The notes: generated by a model from the letters alone, not told the origin. DNA of 64,000 nt from Dehalococcoidia bacterium (GCA_965261385.1 CBDHDB010000002.1:2813096-2877095), one strand, 5' to 3'. Shown: positions 16,690 through 53,075, counted from the first letter of the stretch. Numbers and translations are program-made.

Positions 16690-16860
16690 GCTGCGCCGGG
16701 GAAAGTGGGCTCCTCCCCCGCGCTTCGCTGCGCTTGCGCGTTCCCTCTCCCTTGCCCTCTCCCGCAGACGAGAGAGGGAACCTGAGACGGGAGGGGGAGG
16801 GGCTGCGAGGTTCCCGCCTGCGCGGGAATGACGGATGGGAGCGCGGGAATGACGGATGGG
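16690..16860 (+). repeat. Composite hairpin repeat element (core at 16807-16834)
   Basis: Contains ctctcccgcagacgagagaggg, then GAGGTTCCCGCCTGCGCGGGAATGACGG, then a partial second gcgggaatgacgg. Confidence 0.85.
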
Positions 16861-16870
16861 GATGGCGGGG

Positions 16871-18322
16871 TCATACATAGATCTGGAGGGAGGGGGGCTC
16901 CATGAAGGCGAGGGCCAGGGCGTCGGCGCGGTCGGGAGACTTGACGCCACGTTTGCGGAGGCTGGTCTTGCTCTCCAAACGGATGCGCCCGGTGCTCGAT
17001 ATGTCGTAGCGCAGGGCGAGGAGCTGGCTGGCCAGGATCGCGTCGTCCGGGATGTCGATGGCGTCCTCCCGGAGGAGGCGGGCGATCTCCCAGAAGATCT
17101 CGGCGCGCATGTCCACGAACTGGGAGGGGCGTTTCGCCTTCCCGCCAGCCTCCACGCCGATCACCGGGACGCCGAGGACGCCAAGCCTATCGACGACGCC
17201 ACCGCCGACCCCGTTCTCGTCCACGAACACGGCGGGCACGCGGAGGGCGTCCGCCCATGCCTTGACCTCGTCGGCCACCTGCATCGTGTCGAGGCCGCGC
17301 TTGAGGGGGATGAGATGTTCCACGCGAGAGCCGCGGCGGATGCAGATGACGGACTCGGCGTCGCCGAACCGGGCGACGTCGACGCCCATGCGGTAGGGGT
17401 GGTTGAGGTAGTCGCGGTCTATCTCTCCCGCTGGGAGGGGGGAGGGCTGCGAGGTTCCCGCCTGCGCGGGAATGACGGATGGGAACGCGGGGGTGACGGA
17501 TGGGGACGCGGCCATGTCGGAAGGGGAAGAGAGGGGGACGGGGTCGCCGCGCCAGCGGGCGACGGCGCGGTCGACATGGTGGCGCGTGGTGAGAGAGTCT
17601 TCGAGGGCGTCGGGGAAGCGGCCGAGCACCGAGGCGATGTACAGCGGCGAGTCTTCTCCCCAGTCGCGGCGGCGGCGCTCCACGTCCTCGGGGTTGACCA
17701 GGCCAGGGATGTGGAAACGCTTGCGGCGGAAGTTGGGCGAGTCCAGGGCGGAGATCGCTATCCGGTGGTAGAGGGCGGACTTGGAGTGGAAGGACTCGTA
17801 CAGCTCGCCCTCGTGGGAGAGCGGGTTGCCGAGGAGGAGCGCCTTCTTGGGGTTCAGGCGCTTGAGGGCTTCGAAGTAGGGCTGCTTGACGCCTTGGGCC
17901 TCCGTGACGACGACGAGCAGGTTCGGCGAGTGGAACCCTTGCAGGTTGTGCTGGGAGTTGGAGCAGAAGGCGATGGCGAACCGGTCGTCGTCGATGACGT
18001 ACTTGTCCGCGGTCAGCTTGCCGGGCAGGCGTCCGTTGGCCGCGGCGAGGGCGACGCCGAGCTCGTGCCAGAGTATCTCTTTCACCTGGCGAGCTGTCGG
18101 GCCGGTGACGACGGCTTTGGCGTGGGGCCGGGTGTGGAGCCACCAGAGGACGGCGCGGGCGGCGGCCCAGTCCTTGCCCGATGAGTTGGCGGCCACGACG
18201 GAGACGGCAGTGTAGCGGGCGAGGGCGTCGAGGATGGCTTCCTGCTTGTCGTAGGGCTTGCCGGCGTCCTGGAGGACCTCTTTGACGAATCGGGCGGGGT
18301 GGTTCTTGTATTGGGCGAGCAT
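16871..18322 (-). CDS. phage terminase large subunit-like protein (solitary), carrying an in-frame repeat insertion
   Basis: Walker A-like AANSSGKD and Walker B-like LLVVVTEA. RNaseH-like nuclease motifs MGVDVARFGD and SPDRADAL. The ATG at 18322 is preceded by GAGGAAGG. Confidence 0.75.
   Translation of the reverse strand: MLAQYKNHPARFVKEVLQDAGKPYDKQEAILDALARYTAVSVVAANSSGKDWAAARAVLWWLHTRPHAKAVVTGPTARQVKEILWHELGVALAAANGRLPGKLTADKYVIDDDRFAIAFCSNSQHNLQGFHSPNLLVVVTEAQGVKQPYFEALKRLNPKKALLLGNPLSHEGELYESFHSKSALYHRIAISALDSPNFRRKRFHIPGLVNPEDVERRRRDWGEDSPLYIASVLGRFPDALEDSLTTRHHVDRAVARWRGDPVPLSSPSDMAASPSVTPAFPSVIPAQAGTSQPSPLPAGEIDRDYLNHPYRMGVDVARFGDAESVICIRRGSRVEHLIPLKRGLDTMQVADEVKAWADALRVPAVFVDENGVGGGVVDRLGVLGVPVIGVEAGGKAKRPSQFVDMRAEIFWEIARLLREDAIDIPDDAILASQLLALRYDISSTGRIRLESKTSLRKRGVKSPDRADALALAFMEPPSLQIYV
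17423..17515 (+). repeat. Composite hairpin repeat inside the terminase-like CDS (core 17451-17478)
   Basis: Same core as the intergenic copies. It is translated on the minus strand as ...PSVIPAQAGTSQPSPLPAGE... with no stop codon. Confidence 0.85.
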
Positions 18323-18479
18323 GAGCCTTCCTCGACACATAAGGGCCGAGCGGCTCGTCCGCTCTTACTGGGGTGGGGTGTTGCGTCCCATTGTGACGGT
18401 TTCATGACATTTGGTAAATGGGCAGTTGTCACAAGGGGCCTAGGGGGCGCGTGGATTGGCAGGCAGACGCGCAGACCCT

Positions 18480-20099: not shown

Positions 20100-20815
20100 C
20101 GACCGGTTGCGGGCGAACGCTTTTCCTCCCCCGAGCGTCGCTGCGCTGGCGCGTCCCCTCTCGCAGACGGGCGGGGTTTCCTGGATTCCCGTTTTCGCGG
20201 GAACGACGGGTGGGGGGAGGGGTGCTGACGGCGGGCGAACGTTTCTCCCTCACCCGCGCTGCGCGCGACCTCTCCCGCTGGGAGAGGTGAGGGGCTGCGA
20301 GGTTCCCGCCTGCGCGGGAATGACGGGAGGGCGCCGGGATGACGGAGGGGCGCGGGAGGGGAGGCTGCGAGGTTCCCGCCTTCGCGGGAATGACGGGTTG
20401 GGTTTGGGGTGACGGGGGTAGTTGCGGGCGGGGCGTTCTCCTTCCCCGCGCTTCGTTGCGCTGGCGCGTCCCCTCCCGCAGACGGGCGGGGGGTTCCTGG
20501 GTTCCCGCTTTCGCGGGAATCTCTCACGTTGGCCTATCGGCCAACACCACAACCGACGAAAATAGGGGCTGGAGGACGGAGCGAGGGATCGCGGTGCTGT
20601 CGCCCCGCTACGAGGTTCCCGCCTGCGCGGGAATGACGGAAGGGGGCGTGGGTGGCGGGGGTTAGTTGCGGGCGAACGCTTCTCCTCCCCCGCGTTTCGC
20701 TGCGCTGGCGCCTCCCCTCCCGCAGACGGGCGGGGAGGGCTGCGAGGTTCCCGCCTGCGCGGGAATGACGGAAAGGGCGCGGGAATGACGGAAAGGGCGC
20801 GGGAAATGACGGGAG
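20100..20815 (+). repeat. Dense cluster of six composite hairpin-repeat units
   Basis: Cores at 20183 (variant), 20299, 20369, 20499 (truncated), 20612 and 20744, plus extra gcgggaatgacgg partial copies. The modules between cores are themselves repeated elsewhere in the window. Confidence 0.9.
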
Positions 20816-20828
20816 GGGGGCGGGGGCC

Positions 20829-22886
20829 ATGGGGGTTGGCGGGGTGTACAATCTCGGCGTGGCAAGGCTCTACCGCTACTCCCGGTGGGACGGTTCTCAG
20901 GAGCCGTTCGAAGCCGATGCCGGAGCGCTCCTCGATGCTATGGCCGAGGACGTCATCGACCACGGCGATGTTCGCCGCGCTCTCCGCGACCTCCTCCGGC
21001 GCGGCGCCGACGGCGAGGACACGCGCCTTCCCGGTCTTCAGGACCTCCTCGACCGCCTGGGCTCGCGCCGCAGGGAGACGCTCGACCGGTACGACATGGA
21101 CTCCGTGATGCGCGACCTGAAGGAGCGCCTCGACGACGTTCTCCAGACCGAGCGGGCGGGCACGGACCGCCGGCTCGGCGAGATCGAGCAGGACCTCGCC
21201 CGCATGAGTGATGAGGAGGCGGAGCAGGCCGGCAAGCTGCGCGACCTCTTCCGCCAGCGGGCCGACCGCAACCGCGAACGTCTCGATCAGCTCCCCCCGA
21301 GCACGGCGGGCGCCCTGCGCGAGCTCCAGGACTTCGACTTCATCGACCCGGAGGCGCAGCGGAAGTTCCAAGAGCTCATGGACGAGCTCCGCAAGGAGAT
21401 GCTCGGCTCCGTCGCCTCCGAGATGCGGCAGCAGATAGAGAACATGGACCCCGAGCAGATGGCCCAGATGCGCGAGATGCTGCGGGACCTGAACCAGATG
21501 ATGCGGGACAAGCTCGCCGGTCTAGAGCCCGACTTCGAGGGCTTCATGGACAAGTGGGGCCCCATGTTCGGAGACGATCCGCCGCGCAGCTTCGACGAGC
21601 TGATGGAGATGCTCGCGCGCCAGATGGGGCAGATGCAGTCGCTCCTCGACAGCATGTCCCCGGAGCAGCGTCGCGAGCTGTTCGAGGCGATGAACTCCGC
21701 CATGGACGGCGACACCGCCGGGGAGCTGGCCGAGCTGGCCGCGAACCTGGGCCAGCTGATCCCGTTCGACGACTTCTCGGAGCAGTACCCGTTCATGGGC
21801 GAGGAGAACCTCACCCTCGAACAGGCGATGAACGTCATGGGCGAGATGCAGTCGATGGACGACCTGGAAGCGCAGATCCAGCAGGCGATGCGCCGGGGCG
21901 ACCTCGACGAGCTGGACGCCGACATGCTCGAAACGATCCTCGGTGAGGAGGCCCGCCAAGACCTGGACCGGCTCGCGGAGATGGCGAAGCGGCTGGAAGA
22001 GGCGGGCTACCTGCGGCGGAACGGCGACCGCCTGGAGCTGACCCCGGCAGGCGTGCGGAAGATCGGTCAGAAGGCGCTGCGCGACCTCTTCGGCGACCTC
22101 CGCAAGGGGCGCGGGGGCGACCACGAGCTAACGCTGCGGGGCTCCGGCGGCGAGCACACGGACGAGACCAAGCCCTACGAGTTCGGCGATCCGCTGGAGA
22201 TTCACCTGCACCGCACCATCATGAACGCCATCGAGCGCCAAGGCGTCGGGACGCCCGTCAAGATCGGCATCGAGGACTTCGAGGTGAAACGCACCGAGCA
22301 CATGGTGCAAGCCGCCACGGTCCTGCTCATCGACCAGAGCCGGTCGATGGGGCTGTTCGGCTCCTGGGGCGCGGCCAAGCGGGTGGCGCTGGCGTTGGAG
22401 GCGCTCATACGCGGGAAGTTCCCCCGCGACCGCTTCTGGATGCTCGGCTTCTCGGACTACGCGGTCCCCATCAGCGCCGACGACCTCCCGACGCTCTCGT
22501 GGAACGCGTGGGTGTCCGGCACGAACATGCAGCACGCCTTCGCGATGTCACGCCGTCTGCTCGCCCCCTACAAGGACTGCTCCAAGCAGATCCTGATGAT
22601 CACGGACGGCGAGCCCACGGCCCACCTAGAAGGGACGCGGGCCTACTTCAACTATCCGCCGACGTACCGCACCATCCAGGAGACGCTGCGGGAGGTCCGC
22701 CGCTGCACCACCGAGGGCATCACCATCAACACGTTCATGCTGGAGACGAGCTACTACCTCCTCGACTTCATCGACCACGTGACGCGGATAAACAACGGCC
22801 GGGCGCTGTATACGTCGCCGTCCAACCTGGGGCAGTACGTGCTGGTGGACTATCTGAACAATCGGAAGCGTCGGGTGGTTAGTTAG
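20829..22886 (+). CDS. VWA domain-containing protein with a long acidic coiled-coil region (MoxR/CoxE-associated type)
   Basis: N-terminus YRYSRWDGSQ. The C-terminal VWA fold has the MIDAS-like motif DQSRSM. The start is uncertain (ATG 20829, GTG 20844 or GTG 20859) and lies inside the edge of the repeat cluster. Confidence 0.8.
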   Translation: MGVGGVYNLGVARLYRYSRWDGSQEPFEADAGALLDAMAEDVIDHGDVRRALRDLLRRGADGEDTRLPGLQDLLDRLGSRRRETLDRYDMDSVMRDLKERLDDVLQTERAGTDRRLGEIEQDLARMSDEEAEQAGKLRDLFRQRADRNRERLDQLPPSTAGALRELQDFDFIDPEAQRKFQELMDELRKEMLGSVASEMRQQIENMDPEQMAQMREMLRDLNQMMRDKLAGLEPDFEGFMDKWGPMFGDDPPRSFDELMEMLARQMGQMQSLLDSMSPEQRRELFEAMNSAMDGDTAGELAELAANLGQLIPFDDFSEQYPFMGEENLTLEQAMNVMGEMQSMDDLEAQIQQAMRRGDLDELDADMLETILGEEARQDLDRLAEMAKRLEEAGYLRRNGDRLELTPAGVRKIGQKALRDLFGDLRKGRGGDHELTLRGSGGEHTDETKPYEFGDPLEIHLHRTIMNAIERQGVGTPVKIGIEDFEVKRTEHMVQAATVLLIDQSRSMGLFGSWGAAKRVALALEALIRGKFPRDRFWMLGFSDYAVPISADDLPTLSWNAWVSGTNMQHAFAMSRRLLAPYKDCSKQILMITDGEPTAHLEGTRAYFNYPPTYRTIQETLREVRRCTTEGITINTFMLETSYYLLDFIDHVTRINNGRALYTSPSNLGQYVLVDYLNNRKRRVVS

Positions 22887-23717: not shown

Positions 23718-23939
23718 ATGAACCTTCCAGTAAGCGGCAAGGGGCATGACGATTCCTCGACGGCGCAGGGCGATATTGTTCGGGAATGGGGGTCGCCCAC
23801 GGGTCTCGATGAGTGCCAAGAGCTCATAGATGACTTGGCCGCAGCCCAACAGGCGCTCGCAGAGTATGAAGCCGCTGGCGTAGAGGGCGCTATTCCCTAT
23901 AGCGAGTACAAGGCAAAGCGCCTTGGAACGAAGTCCTGA
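23718..23939 (+). CDS. putative antitoxin of the RelE/ParE module
   Basis: 73-aa ORF overlapping the downstream toxin by 17 nt, which is typical TA organisation. Confidence 0.6.
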   Translation: MNLPVSGKGHDDSSTAQGDIVREWGSPTGLDECQELIDDLAAAQQALAEYEAAGVEGAIPYSEYKAKRLGTKS

Positions 23940-24195
23940 GTACGAGCTGCACATAGCTCCTCGCGCTCAACGTGAGCTCGAACGCCTGCCGCTCACGGAC
24001 TATGAACGGGTGGACGAGCGCATTGGGCCGCTCGCGCAAAACCCACGTCCTCATGGTGCCGCCAAGCTCTGGGACAAGGCCTACCGGATACGCATTGGCC
24101 CGTGGAGAGTCATCTACATCGTCGATGACGCCAAACGAGTTGTAGTGATAACCGGCGTCCTACGGAGGGAGAAGGACACCTATCGTTTGACGTAG
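23923..24195 (+). CDS. type II toxin, RelE/ParE family
   Basis: 90 aa with the pattern ...AQRELERLP...YRIRIGPWRVIYIVDDAKRVVVITGV.RR, typical of RelE/StbE. Confidence 0.85.
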   Translation: MERSPEYELHIAPRAQRELERLPLTDYERVDERIGPLAQNPRPHGAAKLWDKAYRIRIGPWRVIYIVDDAKRVVVITGVLRREKDTYRLT

Positions 24196-24235
24196 CTCTC
24201 TCGATACGAGACATCGCCTAACTGCCCGACGTCGG

Positions 24236-24310
24236 GGATCCGGGGGCGAGGTTCCCGCCTGCGCGGGAATGACGGGAGAGAGCGAGAATGACGGGGCGAG
24301 CGGGGATAGC
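24236..24310 (+). repeat. Composite hairpin repeat (core 24248-24275)
   Basis: Exact core GAGGTTCCCGCCTGCGCGGGAATGACGG followed by a partial gagaatgacgg. Confidence 0.85.
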
Positions 24311-24399
24311 GGGAAGGTTGCGGGCGTGACGGGCGGGGCTTGCGGGGGACGGCTTGGGCTCCTTATACTCAATCGCACAACAGAAGACCGCGACCGACC

Positions 24400-24507
24400 T
24401 TTAAATCCAGTCCTGTGAGGCTGGCAAGGCAGGGACCGGGGCCGTGGATGTTCGCGTCCAGGGCCTGATTACGAGACCTCTTTGCCAGCGGCTGAGAGGT
24501 TTTTTTC
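24400..24507 (+). promoter_or_regulatory. PyrR-binding leader/attenuator of the pyr operon
   Basis: aaAUCCAGuccugugAGGCUgg resembles the PyrR binding loop. It is followed by the hairpin acctct...agaggt and a T7 run that abuts the pyrR TTG start. The GAGAGG RBS lies within the 3' arm of the hairpin. Confidence 0.6.
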
Positions 24508-25059
24508 TTGCCCGACGAGCGCCAGATACTGACAAGCGACGACATGCGGCGCGTGATTAGCCGCATCGCTCACGAGATCGTCGAGCGCAATCACGGCGCC
24601 GCCGACCTGCTGCTCGTCGGGCTCCAGCGTCGCGGAGTGCCGCTGGCGAACCGCATCGCCGCCGCCATCGCCACCTTCGAGGGCGCCGACGTTCCGGTCG
24701 GATCGCTCGACATCAATCTCTACCGGGACGACCTCACGAGCCGTCCCCAGCCCTTGGTGAGGCCGACGGAGTTCCCCGTCGGCGTGGACGGCAAGATCGT
24801 CGTCCTGGTGGATGACGTCTTCTACACGGGCCGCACCGTGCGGGCCGCCCTCAACGCGCTGATGGACCTGGGCAGGCCGCGTGCGGTCCAGCTGGCCGTC
24901 ATGGTCGATCGGGGCCACCACGAACTGCCCATCCGGGCCGACTACGTGGGCAAGAACGTGCCCACGAGCCTGAACGAAGAAATACAGGTACGTGTCGCCG
25001 AGTTCGACGCCACTGAAGAGGTGGCGCTGGTCAGGCACGACCGGCGGGTGCTGTCATGA
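24508..25059 (+). CDS. pyrR: bifunctional pyr operon regulator/uracil phosphoribosyltransferase PyrR
   Basis: 183 aa with the PRPP-binding motif [13 protein letters not shown]. It is the first gene of the pyr operon. Confidence 0.9.
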
Positions 25060-25114
25060 CGACGAACGCTCCGCCCCCCTCCTCAATCCTCCCCCGGACG
25101 GAGAGGGAGGACAG

Positions 25115-26251
25115 ATGAACCCTCCTCTGCATGAGGGACACGTGCAAGGGGAAGGGGGACAGACGAACCAGCGGCGCAAGCACATCCTCGACCTCGACGA
25201 CTTTTCGCGCGAGGAGATTGTGGGCGTGCTCGACCTCGCCGAGGCGATGCGCGAGCTGCTGGGGCGCAGCATCAAGAAGGCGCCGTCGCTGCGGGGGAAG
25301 GTCGTCATCACGGTGTTCCTCGAACCGAGCACGCGGACGCGGGTCTCGTTCGAGCAGGCGGGGAAGATGCTCAGCGCGGACGTCATCAACGTTAGCGGGT
25401 CGGGCAGCAGCGCGGAGAAGGGCGAGTCGCTCCTCAACACGGCGCTCACGCTCCAGGCGATGCGCGCGGACCTCATCGTCATTCGCAGCCCGCACTCGGG
25501 CGCGCCCTACTTCCTCGCCAGGAATCTCGAACGCGCGGGCGTCGTGAATGCAGGCGACGGCCGCCACGCCCACCCGACGCAGGCGCTCCTCGACCTAATG
25601 ACGATGCGGCATCACATGGGCGACCTCGACGGCAAGAAGGTCGTACTCGTGGGCGACTCGCTGCACAGCCGCGTCGCGCGGTCGGACATCTTCGGACTGA
25701 CCGCAATGGGCGCTTCGGTCGTGCTCTCCGGGCCTCCAACGATGATTCCGCTCGACCTGCTCAAGGGCGGCCCCCTCCCGGCCTCCCCCGCAGACGGGGG
25801 AGGAGATCAGAAGGGGCCGCGAGGTTCCCGCCTTCGCGGGAATGACGGCGGCGGCGGGAATGACGGAGGAACCCGCGGGAATGACGGGGGCGGCAGGAAT
25901 GACGGAGGAGCCCCTGGCCTCACGGTCGAGCCTGACCTCGACGCCGCGATAGAGGACGCCGACGCGGTCATCGCCTTGCGCGTCCAGAAGGAGCGTCAAG
26001 AGGCAGGGATGCTGCCGAGCATGCGCGAATACACGCGCCGCTGGATGATTTCGGAGGCCAGGCTCCGCCGGGCCAAGCCGGGGGCGCTGCTCATGCACCC
26101 GGGCCCGATGAACGAGGGCGTCGAGATTGCGTCCTCCTTGGCGCACGGGCCCGGCGCGCAAATCGAGGAGCAGGTCACGAACGGCGTGGCGATTCGGATG
26201 GCGCTGCTTTACCAACTACTCACCGGCGCGCAAGAAGAGGCTTCCGAGTGA
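25115..26251 (+). CDS. pyrB: aspartate carbamoyltransferase catalytic subunit with a roughly 52-codon repeat-derived insertion
   Basis: Motifs STRTR, HPTQ and LRVQKERQ. The ATG at 25115 is preceded by GAGGGAGG. The longer ORF from 24992 overlaps pyrR and is unlikely to be real. Confidence 0.9.
   Translation: MNPPLHEGHVQGEGGQTNQRRKHILDLDDFSREEIVGVLDLAEAMRELLGRSIKKAPSLRGKVVITVFLEPSTRTRVSFEQAGKMLSADVINVSGSGSSAEKGESLLNTALTLQAMRADLIVIRSPHSGAPYFLARNLERAGVVNAGDGRHAHPTQALLDLMTMRHHMGDLDGKKVVLVGDSLHSRVARSDIFGLTAMGASVVLSGPPTMIPLDLLKGGPLPASPADGGGDQKGPRGSRLRGNDGGGGNDGGTRGNDGGGRNDGGAPGLTVEPDLDAAIEDADAVIALRVQKERQEAGMLPSMREYTRRWMISEARLRRAKPGALLMHPGPMNEGVEIASSLAHGPGAQIEEQVTNGVAIRMALLYQLLTGAQEEASE
25765..25920 (+). 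repeat. Composite hairpin repeat inserted in frame in pyrB (core 25821-25848 plus three gggaatgacgg partial copies)
   Basis: cctcccccgcagacgggggagg plus GAGGTTCCCGCCTTCGCGGGAATGACGG, translated as ...PADGGGDQKGPRGSRLRGNDGGGGNDGGTRGNDGGGRNDGG... Confidence 0.85.
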
Positions 26252-28649: not shown

Positions 28650-28712
28650 TGCTTGAAAGCGATGTGCTATAGTGATGTGCGTTCACTGCACATTTCTGAC
28701 GAGGTGAATAAG

Positions 28713-28976
28713 ATGCGTACGACGCTCGATATAGACGAGAGGCTCCTCGGGGATGTGATCCGCGCGGTGGGGGTGAAGGGCAAGAGCAAGGCGGTGGAGG
28801 AAGCCTTGCGTATGTACCTCCGGTCGTGGGCCGCCAAGAAGCTCATCGAGGCTGTCGGCACGATTGATCTCACCGAGAACATGGAGGAGTTCAGGCGCGC
28901 CGACTCCCTTAGAGAAGAGAAACTCGACCGGATGAGAAGGGGAGCCACAGAGCAGAACCCTGTTCGTGCTAGGTGA
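28713..28976 (+). CDS. vapB: type II antitoxin VapB-like
   Basis: MRTTLDIDERLL start preceded by GAGGTGA. Overlaps the PIN gene by 4 nt. Confidence 0.7.
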   Translation: MRTTLDIDERLLGDVIRAVGVKGKSKAVEEALRMYLRSWAAKKLIEAVGTIDLTENMEEFRRADSLREEKLDRMRRGATEQNPVRAR

Positions 28977-49924: not shown

Positions 49925-50395
49925 CCCTGCCCCTCCCCTCCGTCATTGCCTCGAAAATAGACGCCCACGCCCCCTCCGTCATTCCCGCGCAGGCGGGAAC
50001 CTCGTAGCGGGGCGACAGCACCGCGATCCCTCCCCGCGCCCCAACCGTCTTCCCACGCCCCAACCGTCATTCCCGCGAAAGCGGGAATCCAGGTATCGGC
50101 GTCCGCTCGCCTATTTTCCTTGGTTGTGGTGTTGGACGAGGCCAACATAGGGGATTGCCTCGAAAATAGACGCCCACGCTCCCCTCCCGTCATTCCCGCG
50201 CAGGCGGGAACCTCGCAGCGGCGCGACAGCGGCGCGGTCCATCCCCCTCTTCCCGTCTGCTCCGGTTCTCCCCACCGTCTGCGGGGGAGAGCTAGAGAGG
50301 GGGCCGCCCCACTCGCCACTTTCGTCCGTTGTGGTGTGGAGCGTTGGCCCGTCTGCGGGGGAGAGCTAGAGAGGGGGCCGCCCCGCCAACCAGGT
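49925..50395 (-). repeat. Second cluster of composite hairpin repeats, inverted orientation
   Basis: Cores at 49976-50003, 50064-50090 and 50187-50214 (ccgtcattcccgcgcaggcgggaacctc), plus cccgtctgcggggg hairpins at about 50255 and 50350. Confidence 0.9.
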
Positions 50396-50854: not shown

Positions 50855-51814
50855 ATGTCAGACTCAGTGAGCATCCAGGTCCCGGCGACGACGGCCAACC
50901 TTGGCCCAGGCTTCGATTGCCTGGGCATGGCGCTGTCAATGTGGAACACGATGCGTGTCGGCTGGTCGGAACGCCCGTATCTGGAGATTCACGGCTCGGG
51001 CGAGGGGCGTCTGTCGCTCGATGAGCGAAACCTGATGTACCGCTCGGCCCAGCGAGTCCTCGACGAGACAGGCAACAGCCGCCGGAGCCTGTCGATCGAG
51101 AGCTGGCAGGAGATACCGCTCAGCCGCGGACTCGGGAGCAGCTCGGCGGCAATCGTCGGCGGGCTGTACGGGGCGAACGCGCTCCTCGATCACCCGATCG
51201 ACCCGCATGGGCTGCTGCAACTCGCGGCCCAGATCGAGGGGCATCCCGACAATGTCGCGCCGGCGCTGATGGGCGGGTTGAGCATCGCCATCGCGGACGG
51301 GGACACCGTCCACGCCGCGCCCGTTCCGCTGCCCGCCAACCTTCAATGCGTGGCGTACATACCCGACACGCCGATGGCGACGAAGCAGGCGCGGAGCGTG
51401 CTCGAACCGCAACCGGCGCGGACCGACGCGGTGTTCAACGTGGGGCGCGCCGCGCTGCTCGTGGCGAGCCTCGCGCTGGATAGGCCGGAGTACCTGCGTC
51501 TCGCGACGCAGGACCGGCTGCACCAGCCCCAACGGCAGAAGGTATATCGTCAGATGAAGGTCATCTTCGACCACGCGTTGGCGGCGGGCGCGCGCGGCGT
51601 GTTTCTATCCGGCGCGGGCTCGTCAATCGTCGCGTTCACGACGCGGGAGGAGAACCGCGCGTTCACCATCGGTTACGAGATGGCGGACGCCGGGGACAAG
51701 TCAGGGCTGACGGGCACGTTCCGCGTGCTCGAACCCGCAACGACGGGCGCCGGCCCCGTTGACCAAGTCCCGGACTCTGCCGTTCCTCCTCCCCCGTCTG
51801 CGGGGGAGGACTGA
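50855..51814 (+). CDS. thrB: homoserine kinase
   Basis: GHMP kinase motifs PATTANLGPGFD and RGLGSSSAA. The last roughly 8 codons and the stop lie inside a hairpin repeat. Confidence 0.9.
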   Translation: MSDSVSIQVPATTANLGPGFDCLGMALSMWNTMRVGWSERPYLEIHGSGEGRLSLDERNLMYRSAQRVLDETGNSRRSLSIESWQEIPLSRGLGSSSAAIVGGLYGANALLDHPIDPHGLLQLAAQIEGHPDNVAPALMGGLSIAIADGDTVHAAPVPLPANLQCVAYIPDTPMATKQARSVLEPQPARTDAVFNVGRAALLVASLALDRPEYLRLATQDRLHQPQRQKVYRQMKVIFDHALAAGARGVFLSGAGSSIVAFTTREENRAFTIGYEMADAGDKSGLTGTFRVLEPATTGAGPVDQVPDSAVPPPPSAGED

Positions 51815-51830
51815 GGAGGGGGGCCGCTTG

Positions 51831-53075
51831 ATGGGAACGCTCGTCCAGAAGTACGGCGGCACGTCGGTAGGCGACGCCGAGAAAATCAGGCGCGTCGCAC
51901 AGCGCATCGCCGCAACCCGCGCGGCGGGGAACCAGGTGGCGGTGGTCGTGTCCGCGATGGGAGACACGACAGACCGGCTGATCGAGCTGGCGGAGTCCAT
52001 CTCCTCCACGCCGGAGCCCCGCGAGCTTGACATCCTGCTGTCGACGGGGGAGCTCGTGTCCTGCACGCTGCTGGCGATGGCGCTGCGCGAGCTGGGAGAG
52101 CAGGCAATCAGCATGAGCGGCGCCCAGGCCGGAGTGCGCACGGACACCGCCCACGGACGGGCGACCATCGTGAGCTTCGACGCCGAGCGCGTCCGGAGCG
52201 AGCTGGACGCCGGGCGGATCGTCATCGTGGCCGGCTTCCAGGGAATCAACGAGGAAATGGATGTGACGACGCTGGGCCGCGGCGGCTCGGACACTACGGC
52301 CGTGGCGCTCGCCGCCGCGCTGGGGGCCGCTCGCTGCGAAGTCTACACGGATGTCGACGGCATCTACACAGCCGATCCCCGCATCGTGCCGAAGGCGCGC
52401 AAGCTGAGCGAGATCGGCTACGAGGAGATGCTGGAGCTGGCGAGCTACGGGGCGAAGATGCACCCGCGGTCGATCGAGCTGGGCGCGTGGTACAAGACCC
52501 CCATCCTGGTGGCGTCGAGCCGCGAGGACTTGCCCGGCACGCTGATCCACGACCTCGAGGCGGAAGGACCGGGACAAACGGAAGGACAGGGAATGGAAGT
52601 CTCGAACAAAGTCAGAGGCGTGACCTACGACCGGGACGTGGCGCGCATCACGGTGCGGGCCGTGCCCGATCGGCCCGGAATCGCGGCGGCGGTGTTCAAG
52701 CCGCTCTCCGATGCCAACGTGAGCGTCGACACCATCGTGCAGAACGCGAGCGCCGAGCGGCTAACCGACCTCTCATTCACGGTCGACCGAACGGACCTCC
52801 GCCTTGCGCTGGAGCTGACGAGCAAGATCGCGGACGAAATCGGCGCGGCGGACTGCGTGTCGCACGACCACCTGGGGCAGGTGAGCATCGTCGGGACGGG
52901 GATGCAGAACGCGCCGGGAGTCGCGTCCTTGATGTTCTCGACGCTGGCGCAGGCGGGAGTGAACATCGAGATGATCACGACGTCGCAGATCCGCATCACC
53001 TGCATCGTGGACGAAGAGCAGGTCAACGAGGCGGTGCAGGCGCTCCACGACGCGTTCGAGCTCGATCAGGAGTAG
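51831..53075 (+). CDS. lysC: aspartate kinase
   Basis: VQKYGGTSVG, with two C-terminal ACT domains. The ATG at 51831 is preceded by GAGGAGGGGGG. Confidence 0.95.
   Translation: MGTLVQKYGGTSVGDAEKIRRVAQRIAATRAAGNQVAVVVSAMGDTTDRLIELAESISSTPEPRELDILLSTGELVSCTLLAMALRELGEQAISMSGAQAGVRTDTAHGRATIVSFDAERVRSELDAGRIVIVAGFQGINEEMDVTTLGRGGSDTTAVALAAALGAARCEVYTDVDGIYTADPRIVPKARKLSEIGYEEMLELASYGAKMHPRSIELGAWYKTPILVASSREDLPGTLIHDLEAEGPGQTEGQGMEVSNKVRGVTYDRDVARITVRAVPDRPGIAAAVFKPLSDANVSVDTIVQNASAERLTDLSFTVDRTDLRLALELTSKIADEIGAADCVSHDHLGQVSIVGTGMQNAPGVASLMFSTLAQAGVNIEMITTSQIRITCIVDEEQVNEAVQALHDAFELDQE

Follow-up and report, generated by a model that had tools for sequence, protein, structure and literature searches.

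The CGTC-tagged family 1 (CGTC-1) of repetitive extragenic palindromes (REPs) is defined by an 8-bp stem starting with AT, a 4-nt loop, and a CCA tail; it was equated with Neisseria dRS3 and RPE-6 of Rickettsia conorii, and a dedicated transposase was not reported for it (Di Nocera, De Gregorio, and Rocco 2013, BMC Genomics 14:522, PMC3733652). Head-to-head dimers predominate in this family and clusters are rare, with Neisseria and Wolbachia as noted exceptions (PMC3733652). In-frame intragenic copies are known, among them clusters encoding 43 to 82 amino acids and copies in known enzymes of free-living bacteria (PMC3733652), and the encoded peptides DSRFRGND, DSRLRGND, and VIPAKAGI have been tabulated (PMC3733652, Additional file 3). 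Five phyla were listed as hosts of CGTC-1 in 2013; Chloroflexota was not among them, and Chloroflexi was listed only for GTAG repeats (PMC3733652). The Rickettsia palindromic elements (RPEs), as later papers summarize them, lie in frame in genes of known proteins and are translated in a manner compatible with function (Ogata et al. 2000, via PMC3184786 and PMC3733652); in the same summaries, the classic RPE-1 is a single unit of ~105 to 146 bp in AT-rich, reduced intracellular genomes. Here we describe a REP cluster of the CGTC-1 type inside pyrB, the aspartate carbamoyltransferase (ATCase) gene, of a soil bacterium of the Dehalococcoidia (Chloroflexota) with 66% GC. The whole stretch of DNA analyzed, hereafter the window, is 64 kb of a ~2.9-Mb genome, and its nearest public loci all come from Dehalococcoidia or SAR202 metagenome-assembled genomes. 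We read the insert, with a probability of about 0.85, as selfish DNA, a CGTC-1 REP cluster that, once translated, forms a disordered loop on the surface of a functional ATCase.

The host gene and the parts of the insert are as follows.

25115 to 26251, plus strand: pyrB, the ATCase catalytic chain, 378 amino acids, identified by Pfam, PDB matches, fold, and motifs.
25769 to 25918, plus strand: the whole repeat-derived insert, 150 nt or 50 codons (residues 219 to 268), without a stop.
25782 to 25803, plus strand: module 1, the small hairpin CCTCCCCCG-CAGA-CGGGGGAGG, a perfect 9-bp inverted repeat, translated as SPADGGG.
25825 to 25848, plus strand: module 2, one full CGTC-1 REP unit, translated as SRLRGNDG.
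25849 to 25905, plus strand: module 3, three tandem half-copies, each comprising the right arm and the tag, which encode (G)GNDGG repeats.

The insert is translated as GPLPASPADGGGDQKGPRGSRLRGNDGGGGNDGGTRGNDGGGRNDGGAPG, 50 residues with 40% glycine, between the flanking peptides ...VLSGPPTMIPLDLLKG on the upstream side and LTVEPDLDAAIEDADAV... on the downstream side; the junction peptides of the predicted PyrB are ...LDLLKGGPLPASPADGGGDQK and GNDGGAPGLTVEPDLDAAIEDADAVIALR. A first-pass annotation of the window had reported this sequence, its translation, the flanking peptides, and an open reading frame (ORF) without a stop or frameshift, all of which were reproduced exactly. Its placement of the insert within pyrB also held, and its limits of 25765 to 25920 were corrected to those given above. 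Module 2 contains the full 18-nt palindrome TTCCCGCCTTCGCGGGAA at 25825 to 25842, followed by the tag TGACGG, and reads on the minus strand CCGTCA-TTCCCGC-GAAG-GCGGGAA. The three extra half-copies in the same annotation were found as GGGAATGACGG at 25856, 25877, and 25895, with successive motif starts 18, 21, and 18 nt apart, and Tandem Repeats Finder returned periods of 18 nt (3.9 copies) and 39 nt (2 copies, 92% match) for the insert. The GC contents at the three codon positions were 0.82, 0.72, and 0.68 in the insert versus 0.70, 0.44, and 0.87 in the pyrB flanks, indicating that the insert, unlike native coding sequence, lacks the host coding signature.

The insert belongs to a repeat family that is abundant in the window. 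The motif GGGAATGACGG occurred 25 times at no more than one mismatch, compared to 1.85 expected, and the 18-nt palindrome TTCCCGCYTKCGCGGGAA occurred 17 times at no more than two mismatches, compared to 0.04 expected. Intergenic copies were located at 16.8, 20.1 to 20.85, 24.25, 45.2, 49.9 to 50.3, 55.9, and 58.1 kb. The pyrB insert aligns with them module by module, the 24-nt core being identical, and has the same anatomy, namely, a small hairpin, then GGGCTGCGAGG with the palindrome and TGACGG, and then tandem half-copies. The hairpin of module 1 also adjoins the intergenic copies at 16.76, 20.16, 20.47, 20.72, 50.55, and 51.79 kb. Four intergenic arrays are listed here.

16745 to 16870, plus strand: composite of hairpin, full REP, and half-copies, the nearest architectural match to the pyrB insert.
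20100 to 20850, plus strand: cluster of ~700 nt in which nearly all of the sequence belongs to family members, with six full palindromes.
24225 to 24330, plus strand: REP and an array of degenerate half-copies, immediately preceding the PyrR-binding leader of the pyr operon.
49930 to 50300, minus strand: cluster with three full palindromes, including the canonical copy CCTGGATTCCCGCTTTCGCGGGAATGACGG.

Coding sequence makes up 82% of the window, yet only 2 of the 17 palindromes lie in it, whereas ~14 would be expected under random placement; both are in frame, and both sit in a loop or linker. The spacings in the intergenic arrays were 13, 19, 20, 21, 31, 36, and 38 nt and were not confined to multiples of 3.

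The repeat unit was compared with CGTC-1. On the minus strand it reads CGTC-ATTCCCGC-GCAG/GAAG-GCGGGAA(C/T), with some copies in the canonical form CGTCATTCCCGCGAAAGCGGGAATCCAGG. The CGTC tag stands directly beside one end of the palindrome (the minus strand reads CCGTCATTCCCGC...), and the palindrome with its TGACGG tag recurs in the window and in the related loci L081 to L087 (L0nn denotes DNA loci of relatives, and P0nnn denotes protein homologues). The loop is 4 nt long in all copies (CTGC, CTTC, or TTTC), and stem positions 2 to 8 pair perfectly. Stem position 1 is the canonical A-T in a minority of copies of the form GGATTCCCGC...GCGGGAAT and mostly G in the others, which gives G·T on one strand and A·C on the other. 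The CCA tail is present in the CCTGGATTCCC copies (20.18 kb, 50.09 kb, and L086), while the majority have AACCTCG, a CCT-type tail. In BLAST searches, the 35-nt canonical unit was 94 to 100% identical over 28 to 33 nt to sequences in other replicons, with Neisseria gonorrhoeae (at least 40 places per record), replicons of Azospirillum lipoferum, Novosphingobium, Legionella, Cupriavidus, and others among the hosts. These hosts agree with those given for CGTC-1 in PMC3733652, and the peptides SRLRGND of pyrB and VIPAQAGT of a terminase-like gene in the window correspond to the tabulated CGTC-1 peptides. The units are arranged directly, with large clusters at 20.1 to 20.85 and 49.9 to 50.3 kb, and not as head-to-head dimers; however, the dimer is a feature of arrangement rather than a defining one. 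The direct BLAST and peptide matches served as tests of the family assignment, and on these sequence comparisons we assign the repeat to CGTC-1, to which Neisseria dRS3 and Rickettsia RPE-6 also belong. The first-pass annotation had offered Rickettsia elements as an analogy; the comparison is more than that, because R. conorii RPE-6, as a member of this family, is a related element. The case is also less unusual than had been implied, since in-frame REPs in enzymes of free-living bacteria were reported in 2013 (PMC3733652).

Relatives with filled and empty sites were then compared. In the protein database, the relatives most alike in the flanks, with at least 91% identity, all carry repeat-derived sequence at the same site, each differing in length and composition, and those with 77 to 86% identity lack it. 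At least ten close relatives are filled at this position, and eight independent assemblies, drawn from six or more samples, contain the insert there. In DNA, nine relatives with 57 to 86% identity have an empty site, with 39 nt (13 residues) between PLDL and VE(H/P)DLD, compared to 165 nt in the window, which has thus gained 126 nt, or 42 residues net, over the 13-residue loop. The gain of ~52 residues proposed earlier is right relative to the PDB homologues but too large relative to these nearest empty-site relatives. The ortholog alignment, which had been suggested as a check, indicates with its nine 39-nt loops that the segment is not a native feature of PyrB. For pyrB, an in-frame repeat in a known gene, empty orthologous sites, and a conserved flanking protein were all found, as in the RPE type of insertion.

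The eight filled DNA alleles measured 84, 105, 129, 150, 153, 246, 258, and 318 nt, all of them multiples of 3 and free of stops in the frame used, and another two alleles, read as protein (P0241 and P0025), are unlike those of the window and P0007 by whole units of 6 or 7 residues. The differences are modular: the alleles vary in how many 18/21-nt half-units they contain, L081, L084, and L087 have a second composite of hairpin and REP, and only the terminal REP is conserved among the alleles. L085 equals L081 minus 108 nt lying between two direct copies of the hairpin module, a difference that would be expected from unequal recombination. Motif spacings in the coding arrays were 18, 21, 42, 93, 108, and 114 nt, the sole exception being 44 nt in L087, a 6x-coverage assembly, at which point reading moves into the other open frame (AGMT). 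The unit has no stops in two of its three forward frames or in any of its reverse frames, so that a random landing could fairly often be readable; what stands out is how consistently the frame was kept through many later indels. Judging from dS, the insertion would have occurred after the split from the L088 lineage (dS about 0.7 to 0.8) and before the split of L082 and L083 (about 0.2 to 0.28), and the shared terminal REP and junction point to a single origin.

The gene around the insert has the properties of a functional ATCase. PyrB contains OTCace_N (residues 22 to 165) and OTCace (residues 269 to 367), which flank the insert on both sides, together with the STRTR, HPTQ, R, RxQ, and HPxP motifs of an ATCase catalytic chain. 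The flanking motifs are indeed intact, as had been noted, and the catalytic motifs STRTR, HPTQ, R, RVQ, and HPGP are invariant across 117 homologues. The closest solved structures in a PDB search were the ATCases from Aquifex (4bjh/3d6n), B. subtilis (3r7d), and S. aureus, with E values of about 1e-51; the PDB ATCases cover query residues 6 to 215 and 271 to 367 and have only ~6 residues of their own between them. The dN/dS ratios, calculated by the Nei-Gojobori method over 906 nt of the pyrB flanks, were 0 to 0.064 among the insert-bearing genomes (47 synonymous and 7 non-synonymous differences between the window and L083) and 0.063 to 0.085 versus the empty-site relative L088. These low ratios indicate that selection has not been relaxed since the insertion and that the gene copy is functional. 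Furthermore, pyrB is second in the gene order pyrR-pyrB-pyrC-carA-carB, which is kept in all relatives, and the operon is preceded by a regulatory leader.

24394 to 24509, plus strand: PyrR-binding RNA leader upstream of pyrR (Rfam RF00515, 54.9 bits versus a gathering score of 54).

This leader shows that pyrB is a member of a regulated pyr operon. It was the only match in the Rfam scans, which covered 23.6 to 26.4 kb with E values up to 1 and the whole window with the gathering score as the cutoff; the insert had no match in these scans, and no PyrR site was detected in the pyrR-pyrB spacer.

The AlphaFold2 model of PyrB, built with a 117-sequence alignment, had a mean predicted local distance difference test (pLDDT) score of 80.4 and a predicted template modeling score of 0.80, with 286 of the 378 residues at a pLDDT of at least 70. 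It matched the ATCases from B. subtilis, S. aureus, and Aquifex with target-normalized TM-scores of 0.88 to 0.89. Residues 223 to 263 had pLDDT values below 50 and no secondary structure, and they lie between a short helix (213 to 216) and a strand (269 to 271). The insert site is an α-to-β turn at the N-terminal end of a strand in the parallel sheet of the aspartate domain, and R289 and Q291, corresponding to E. coli Arg229 and Gln231, are at the C-terminal end of the following strand. From this topology, the turn carrying the insert would be on the sheet face opposite the substrate-binding loops and away from the active site. The structure prediction that had been proposed as a check modeled the insert as a disordered loop of the aspartate domain, in line with a probable surface loop that the enzyme would tolerate.

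We propose the following course of events for the selfish-DNA reading. One REP copy would have landed in the helix-to-strand loop of the PyrB aspartate domain after the split from the relatives with 13-residue loops. The allele series suggests that the array then grew, shrank, and was reshuffled by slippage between the 18/21-nt half-copies and by unequal recombination of duplicated modules. Because pyrB is under strong purifying selection, only stop-free variants with lengths in multiples of 3 survive, as the data above demonstrate. The segment would be translated as a disordered loop rich in Gly, Asp, Asn, and Arg, and the insert would be tolerated because, according to the model and the fold topology, this loop lies on the face away from the active site. 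The repeat insert is most likely neutral or slightly deleterious selfish DNA and not a functional addition.

Several observations weigh against this reading. No transposase was found among the window ORFs scanned with Pfam or PHROGs, and no clear target-site duplication was found by comparing filled and empty sites; the junctions share GCCCC(C)T..GGCCTC-like strings resembling the empty site GTCCCCGGCCTG, a similarity that could be due to chance in GC-rich sequence. Examined as a miniature inverted-repeat transposable element, the composite is without terminal inverted repeats. Among the alleles, none has lost the insert. In the four genomes with flank dS of 0.045 to 0.11 (the window, L081, L085, and L086), the intergenic array 1.4 kb upstream is invariant in length, whereas the pyrB array is different in each; simple neutrality does not predict a coding array that changes while its intergenic neighbor is fixed. 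The better-preserved half-copies in pyrB may slip more often and thus explain the faster change. In addition, the translation of the segment and the activity of the enzyme are predicted, and the search for a second pyrB, which found none, covered the 64-kb window of the genome.

The faster change of the coding array could also mean that the intragenic array is an actively remodeled hypervariable module, changed by a process that is driven by an enzyme or coupled to transcription or replication and that acts on well-preserved CGTC units, or that diversifying selection acts on the ATCase loop; we regard this as unlikely. The same observation, together with the fact that all ten alleles keep the array and none has reverted to the empty site, would fit a co-opted array, acting either as an mRNA hairpin block within the operon that tunes the stability or translation of pyrB relative to pyrC and carAB or as a variable disordered tether on the surface of ATCase that affects assembly with the adjacent dihydroorotase. 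Among the nearest homologues of solved structure is the Aquifex ATCase, an enzyme that functions while complexed with dihydroorotase; no residue-level information placing the loop relative to the ATCase-dihydroorotase interface was found in the literature. The insert RNA is predicted to form strong hairpins (−87.9 kcal/mol, z = −2.06). However, 6 of 200 shuffled sequences folded equally well, and this marginal score is no evidence of a selected structure. Moreover, the length of 84 to 318 nt and the module content are free to vary, part of the L087 array is read in another frame (AGMT), nothing beyond the terminal REP is conserved, and the codon-position composition is unadapted, while precise excision of such inserts is expected to be rare anyway. 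Co-option is therefore doubtful, and we give it slightly less weight still than active remodeling.

It is very improbable that this pyrB is a decaying or unused copy while another intact pyrB is active. Such a copy could lie elsewhere in the 2.9-Mb genome, of which the window covers 64 kb, but no second ATCase-like sequence is present in the window, and the flank dN/dS of 0 to 0.064, the frame kept in every allele, the intact catalytic residues, and the location of the gene, in all relatives, in a pyrR-pyrB-pyrC-carA operon that follows a PyrR leader argue for a gene in use. A native lineage-specific loop that grew by internal duplication and resembles the repeat by chance, or a mis-joined repeat in the assemblies, might be suspected in a GC-rich region of low complexity drawn from long-read metagenome assemblies, one of them at 6x with frameshifts (L087). 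Nevertheless, the identical 24-nt core, the hairpin, REP, and half-copy architecture common to many intergenic copies, the 17 palindromes where 0.04 were expected, and the same site in eight independent assemblies effectively refute both versions, which we consider the least credible of all. An intein was also considered and rejected, as there is no Pfam intein domain and the insert starts with Gly-Pro, ends with Ala-Pro-Gly followed by Leu, and is 40% glycine.

The second coding-region palindrome of the window lies in a terminase-large-subunit-like ORF (16871 to 18340, minus strand; PHROG_2, 2e-35).

17405 to 17535, minus strand: second in-frame family copy, in the opposite orientation, translated as ...SVTPAFPSVIPAQAGTSQPSPLPAGE...

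This copy falls within the linker that joins the ATPase half to the nuclease half (...SVIPAQAGTSQPSPLP...), where homologues have either no insert or REP-derived inserts of varying length. A PDB search for the terminase-like protein was uninformative. Homologues of this protein occur widely among Dehalococcoidia chromosomes, where each genome has several paralogues, and the linker is hypervariable at this point. The PyrB loop itself has a mode of 13 residues and a range of 5 to 91 residues in the 117 homologues. In P0037 and P0051 it carries ...SARPELVEGPPYLPN, a different repeat (peptide SARPELVEG; L089 10640 to 10740 for P0051), of which the DNA core TCCTGAGCTTGTCGAAGGA in L089 is also intergenic in another genome (L054 5217 to 5233). 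The loop of P0109 (L090 1800 to 2020) has 71 Gly-rich residues, including the degenerate GGCGGAATGACGAC, a degenerate CGTC half-copy. No further copies of the P0051 and P0109 inserts were found in the same contigs, and their sole outside match was a 17-nt exact one (~19 nt aligned) in another genome. On these sequences, the PyrB loop has expanded independently in other Dehalococcoidia lineages and is a recurrent permissive site.

Some further features of the repeats were observed in the window. The repeat clusters contain an extra module at 20520 to 20570 (plus strand) and about 50110 to 50160 (minus strand), GTTGGCC-N5-GGCCAACACCACAACC..GAAAATAGG, which forms a short hairpin followed by an A-rich tail and has no Rfam match. 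A copy of the small hairpin, CCCCCGCAGACGGGGGAG, is located at 51789 to 51806 (minus strand) in the last codons of a GHMP-kinase gene (50855 to 51814), where this gene overlaps the start of an aspartokinase-like ORF (51759 to 53075). When palindromes with no more than one mismatch were compared between 16.8 to 45.2 kb and 49.9 to 58.2 kb, the G-rich strand was on the plus strand up to 45 kb and always on the minus strand beyond 49.9 kb. Most palindromes are sense-oriented relative to the adjacent downstream gene. The GC-skew profile, tested for a link between REP orientation and replication direction, was noisy and gave no clear signal.

The pyr operon is interleaved with a ParE-like toxin gene (23923 to 24195) and a VapB-like antitoxin ORF (28653 to 28976, between carA and carB). 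The pyrR-pyrB spacer and the N-terminal extension of PyrB (25059 to 25180 in the window; 3000 to 3160 in L083) are made up of hairpin units repeated locally in tandem, CCTCCCCC..GGGAGGACAGAYGAAC. In the window, one of these spacer units provides the Shine-Dalgarno sequence and the ATG at 25115, while in L083 and P0241 translation begins where pyrB and pyrR overlap at ATGA and continues across as many as three hairpin units (LPLQGGGQTN x3). The start codon and N terminus of PyrB thus shift between close relatives.

The mechanism itself is not new; what is new is the Chloroflexota host, pyrB as the host gene, and the in-frame allele series. A literature search found no paper naming both Dehalococcoidia and REPs. 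REP-type selfish DNA would thus colonize core metabolic genes in free-living, high-GC Chloroflexota and not solely in reduced intracellular genomes. The extension of the CGTC-1 range to a phylum unlisted in 2013 sharpens the question of why a ~30-nt palindrome is near-identical across distant phyla with no known transposase. The allele series is in effect a natural insertion scan, in which the helix-to-strand turn of ATCase is highly permissive, accepting up to ~100 extra residues, and this may aid protein engineering. In metagenome-assembled genomes, such inserts can be misread as frameshifts, chimeras, or poor gene calls, and the array could serve for strain typing. If active remodeling were true, this locus, which has a frame filter of its own, would be a tractable place to look for the machinery by which CGTC REPs spread between phyla.

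Among known systems, the GTAG REPs with their RAYT transposases (REPtrons) and the bacterial interspersed mosaic elements share with this family short GC-rich hairpins in mosaic intergenic arrays that are occasionally intragenic. However, the tag here is CGTC, and no Y1 or RAYT gene is present in the window; a REPtron was rejected because there was no consistent GTAG/CTAC at the unit ends and no Y1_Tnp match in the window. Coding tandem repeats, such as variable-number tandem repeats (VNTRs) of the MIRU (mycobacterial interspersed repetitive unit) or contingency type, likewise change by copy-number steps (18/21 nt here), keep the frame, and differ between close strains. In contrast to them, the unit here is a fragment of a dispersed REP and not a locus-specific repeat, and there is no evidence of on/off switching, since all alleles are in frame. 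The RPEs have in common with the pyrB case a palindromic repeat in frame, a translated extra segment compatible with function, and filled and empty sites among relatives. Unlike the RPEs, the pyrB insert is a composite, VNTR-like array of a ~30-nt REP in a free-living soil bacterium of 66% GC, and it is different in each of ten related genomes. The closest match is CGTC-1, with a CGTC tag next to the ATTCCCGC/GCGGGAAT stem, a 4-nt loop, a CCA tail in canonical copies, many and mostly intergenic copies, in-frame copies encoding SRLRGND or VIPAKAGI, and no associated transposase known. The family in the window differs from the described CGTC-1 in its Chloroflexota host, in the G instead of A at the first stem position and the CCT-type tail of most copies, in the arrangement of one full palindrome followed by one to three direct half-copies at 18 to 21 nt in place of head-to-head dimers, and in the frequent joining of its copies to a second small hairpin module.

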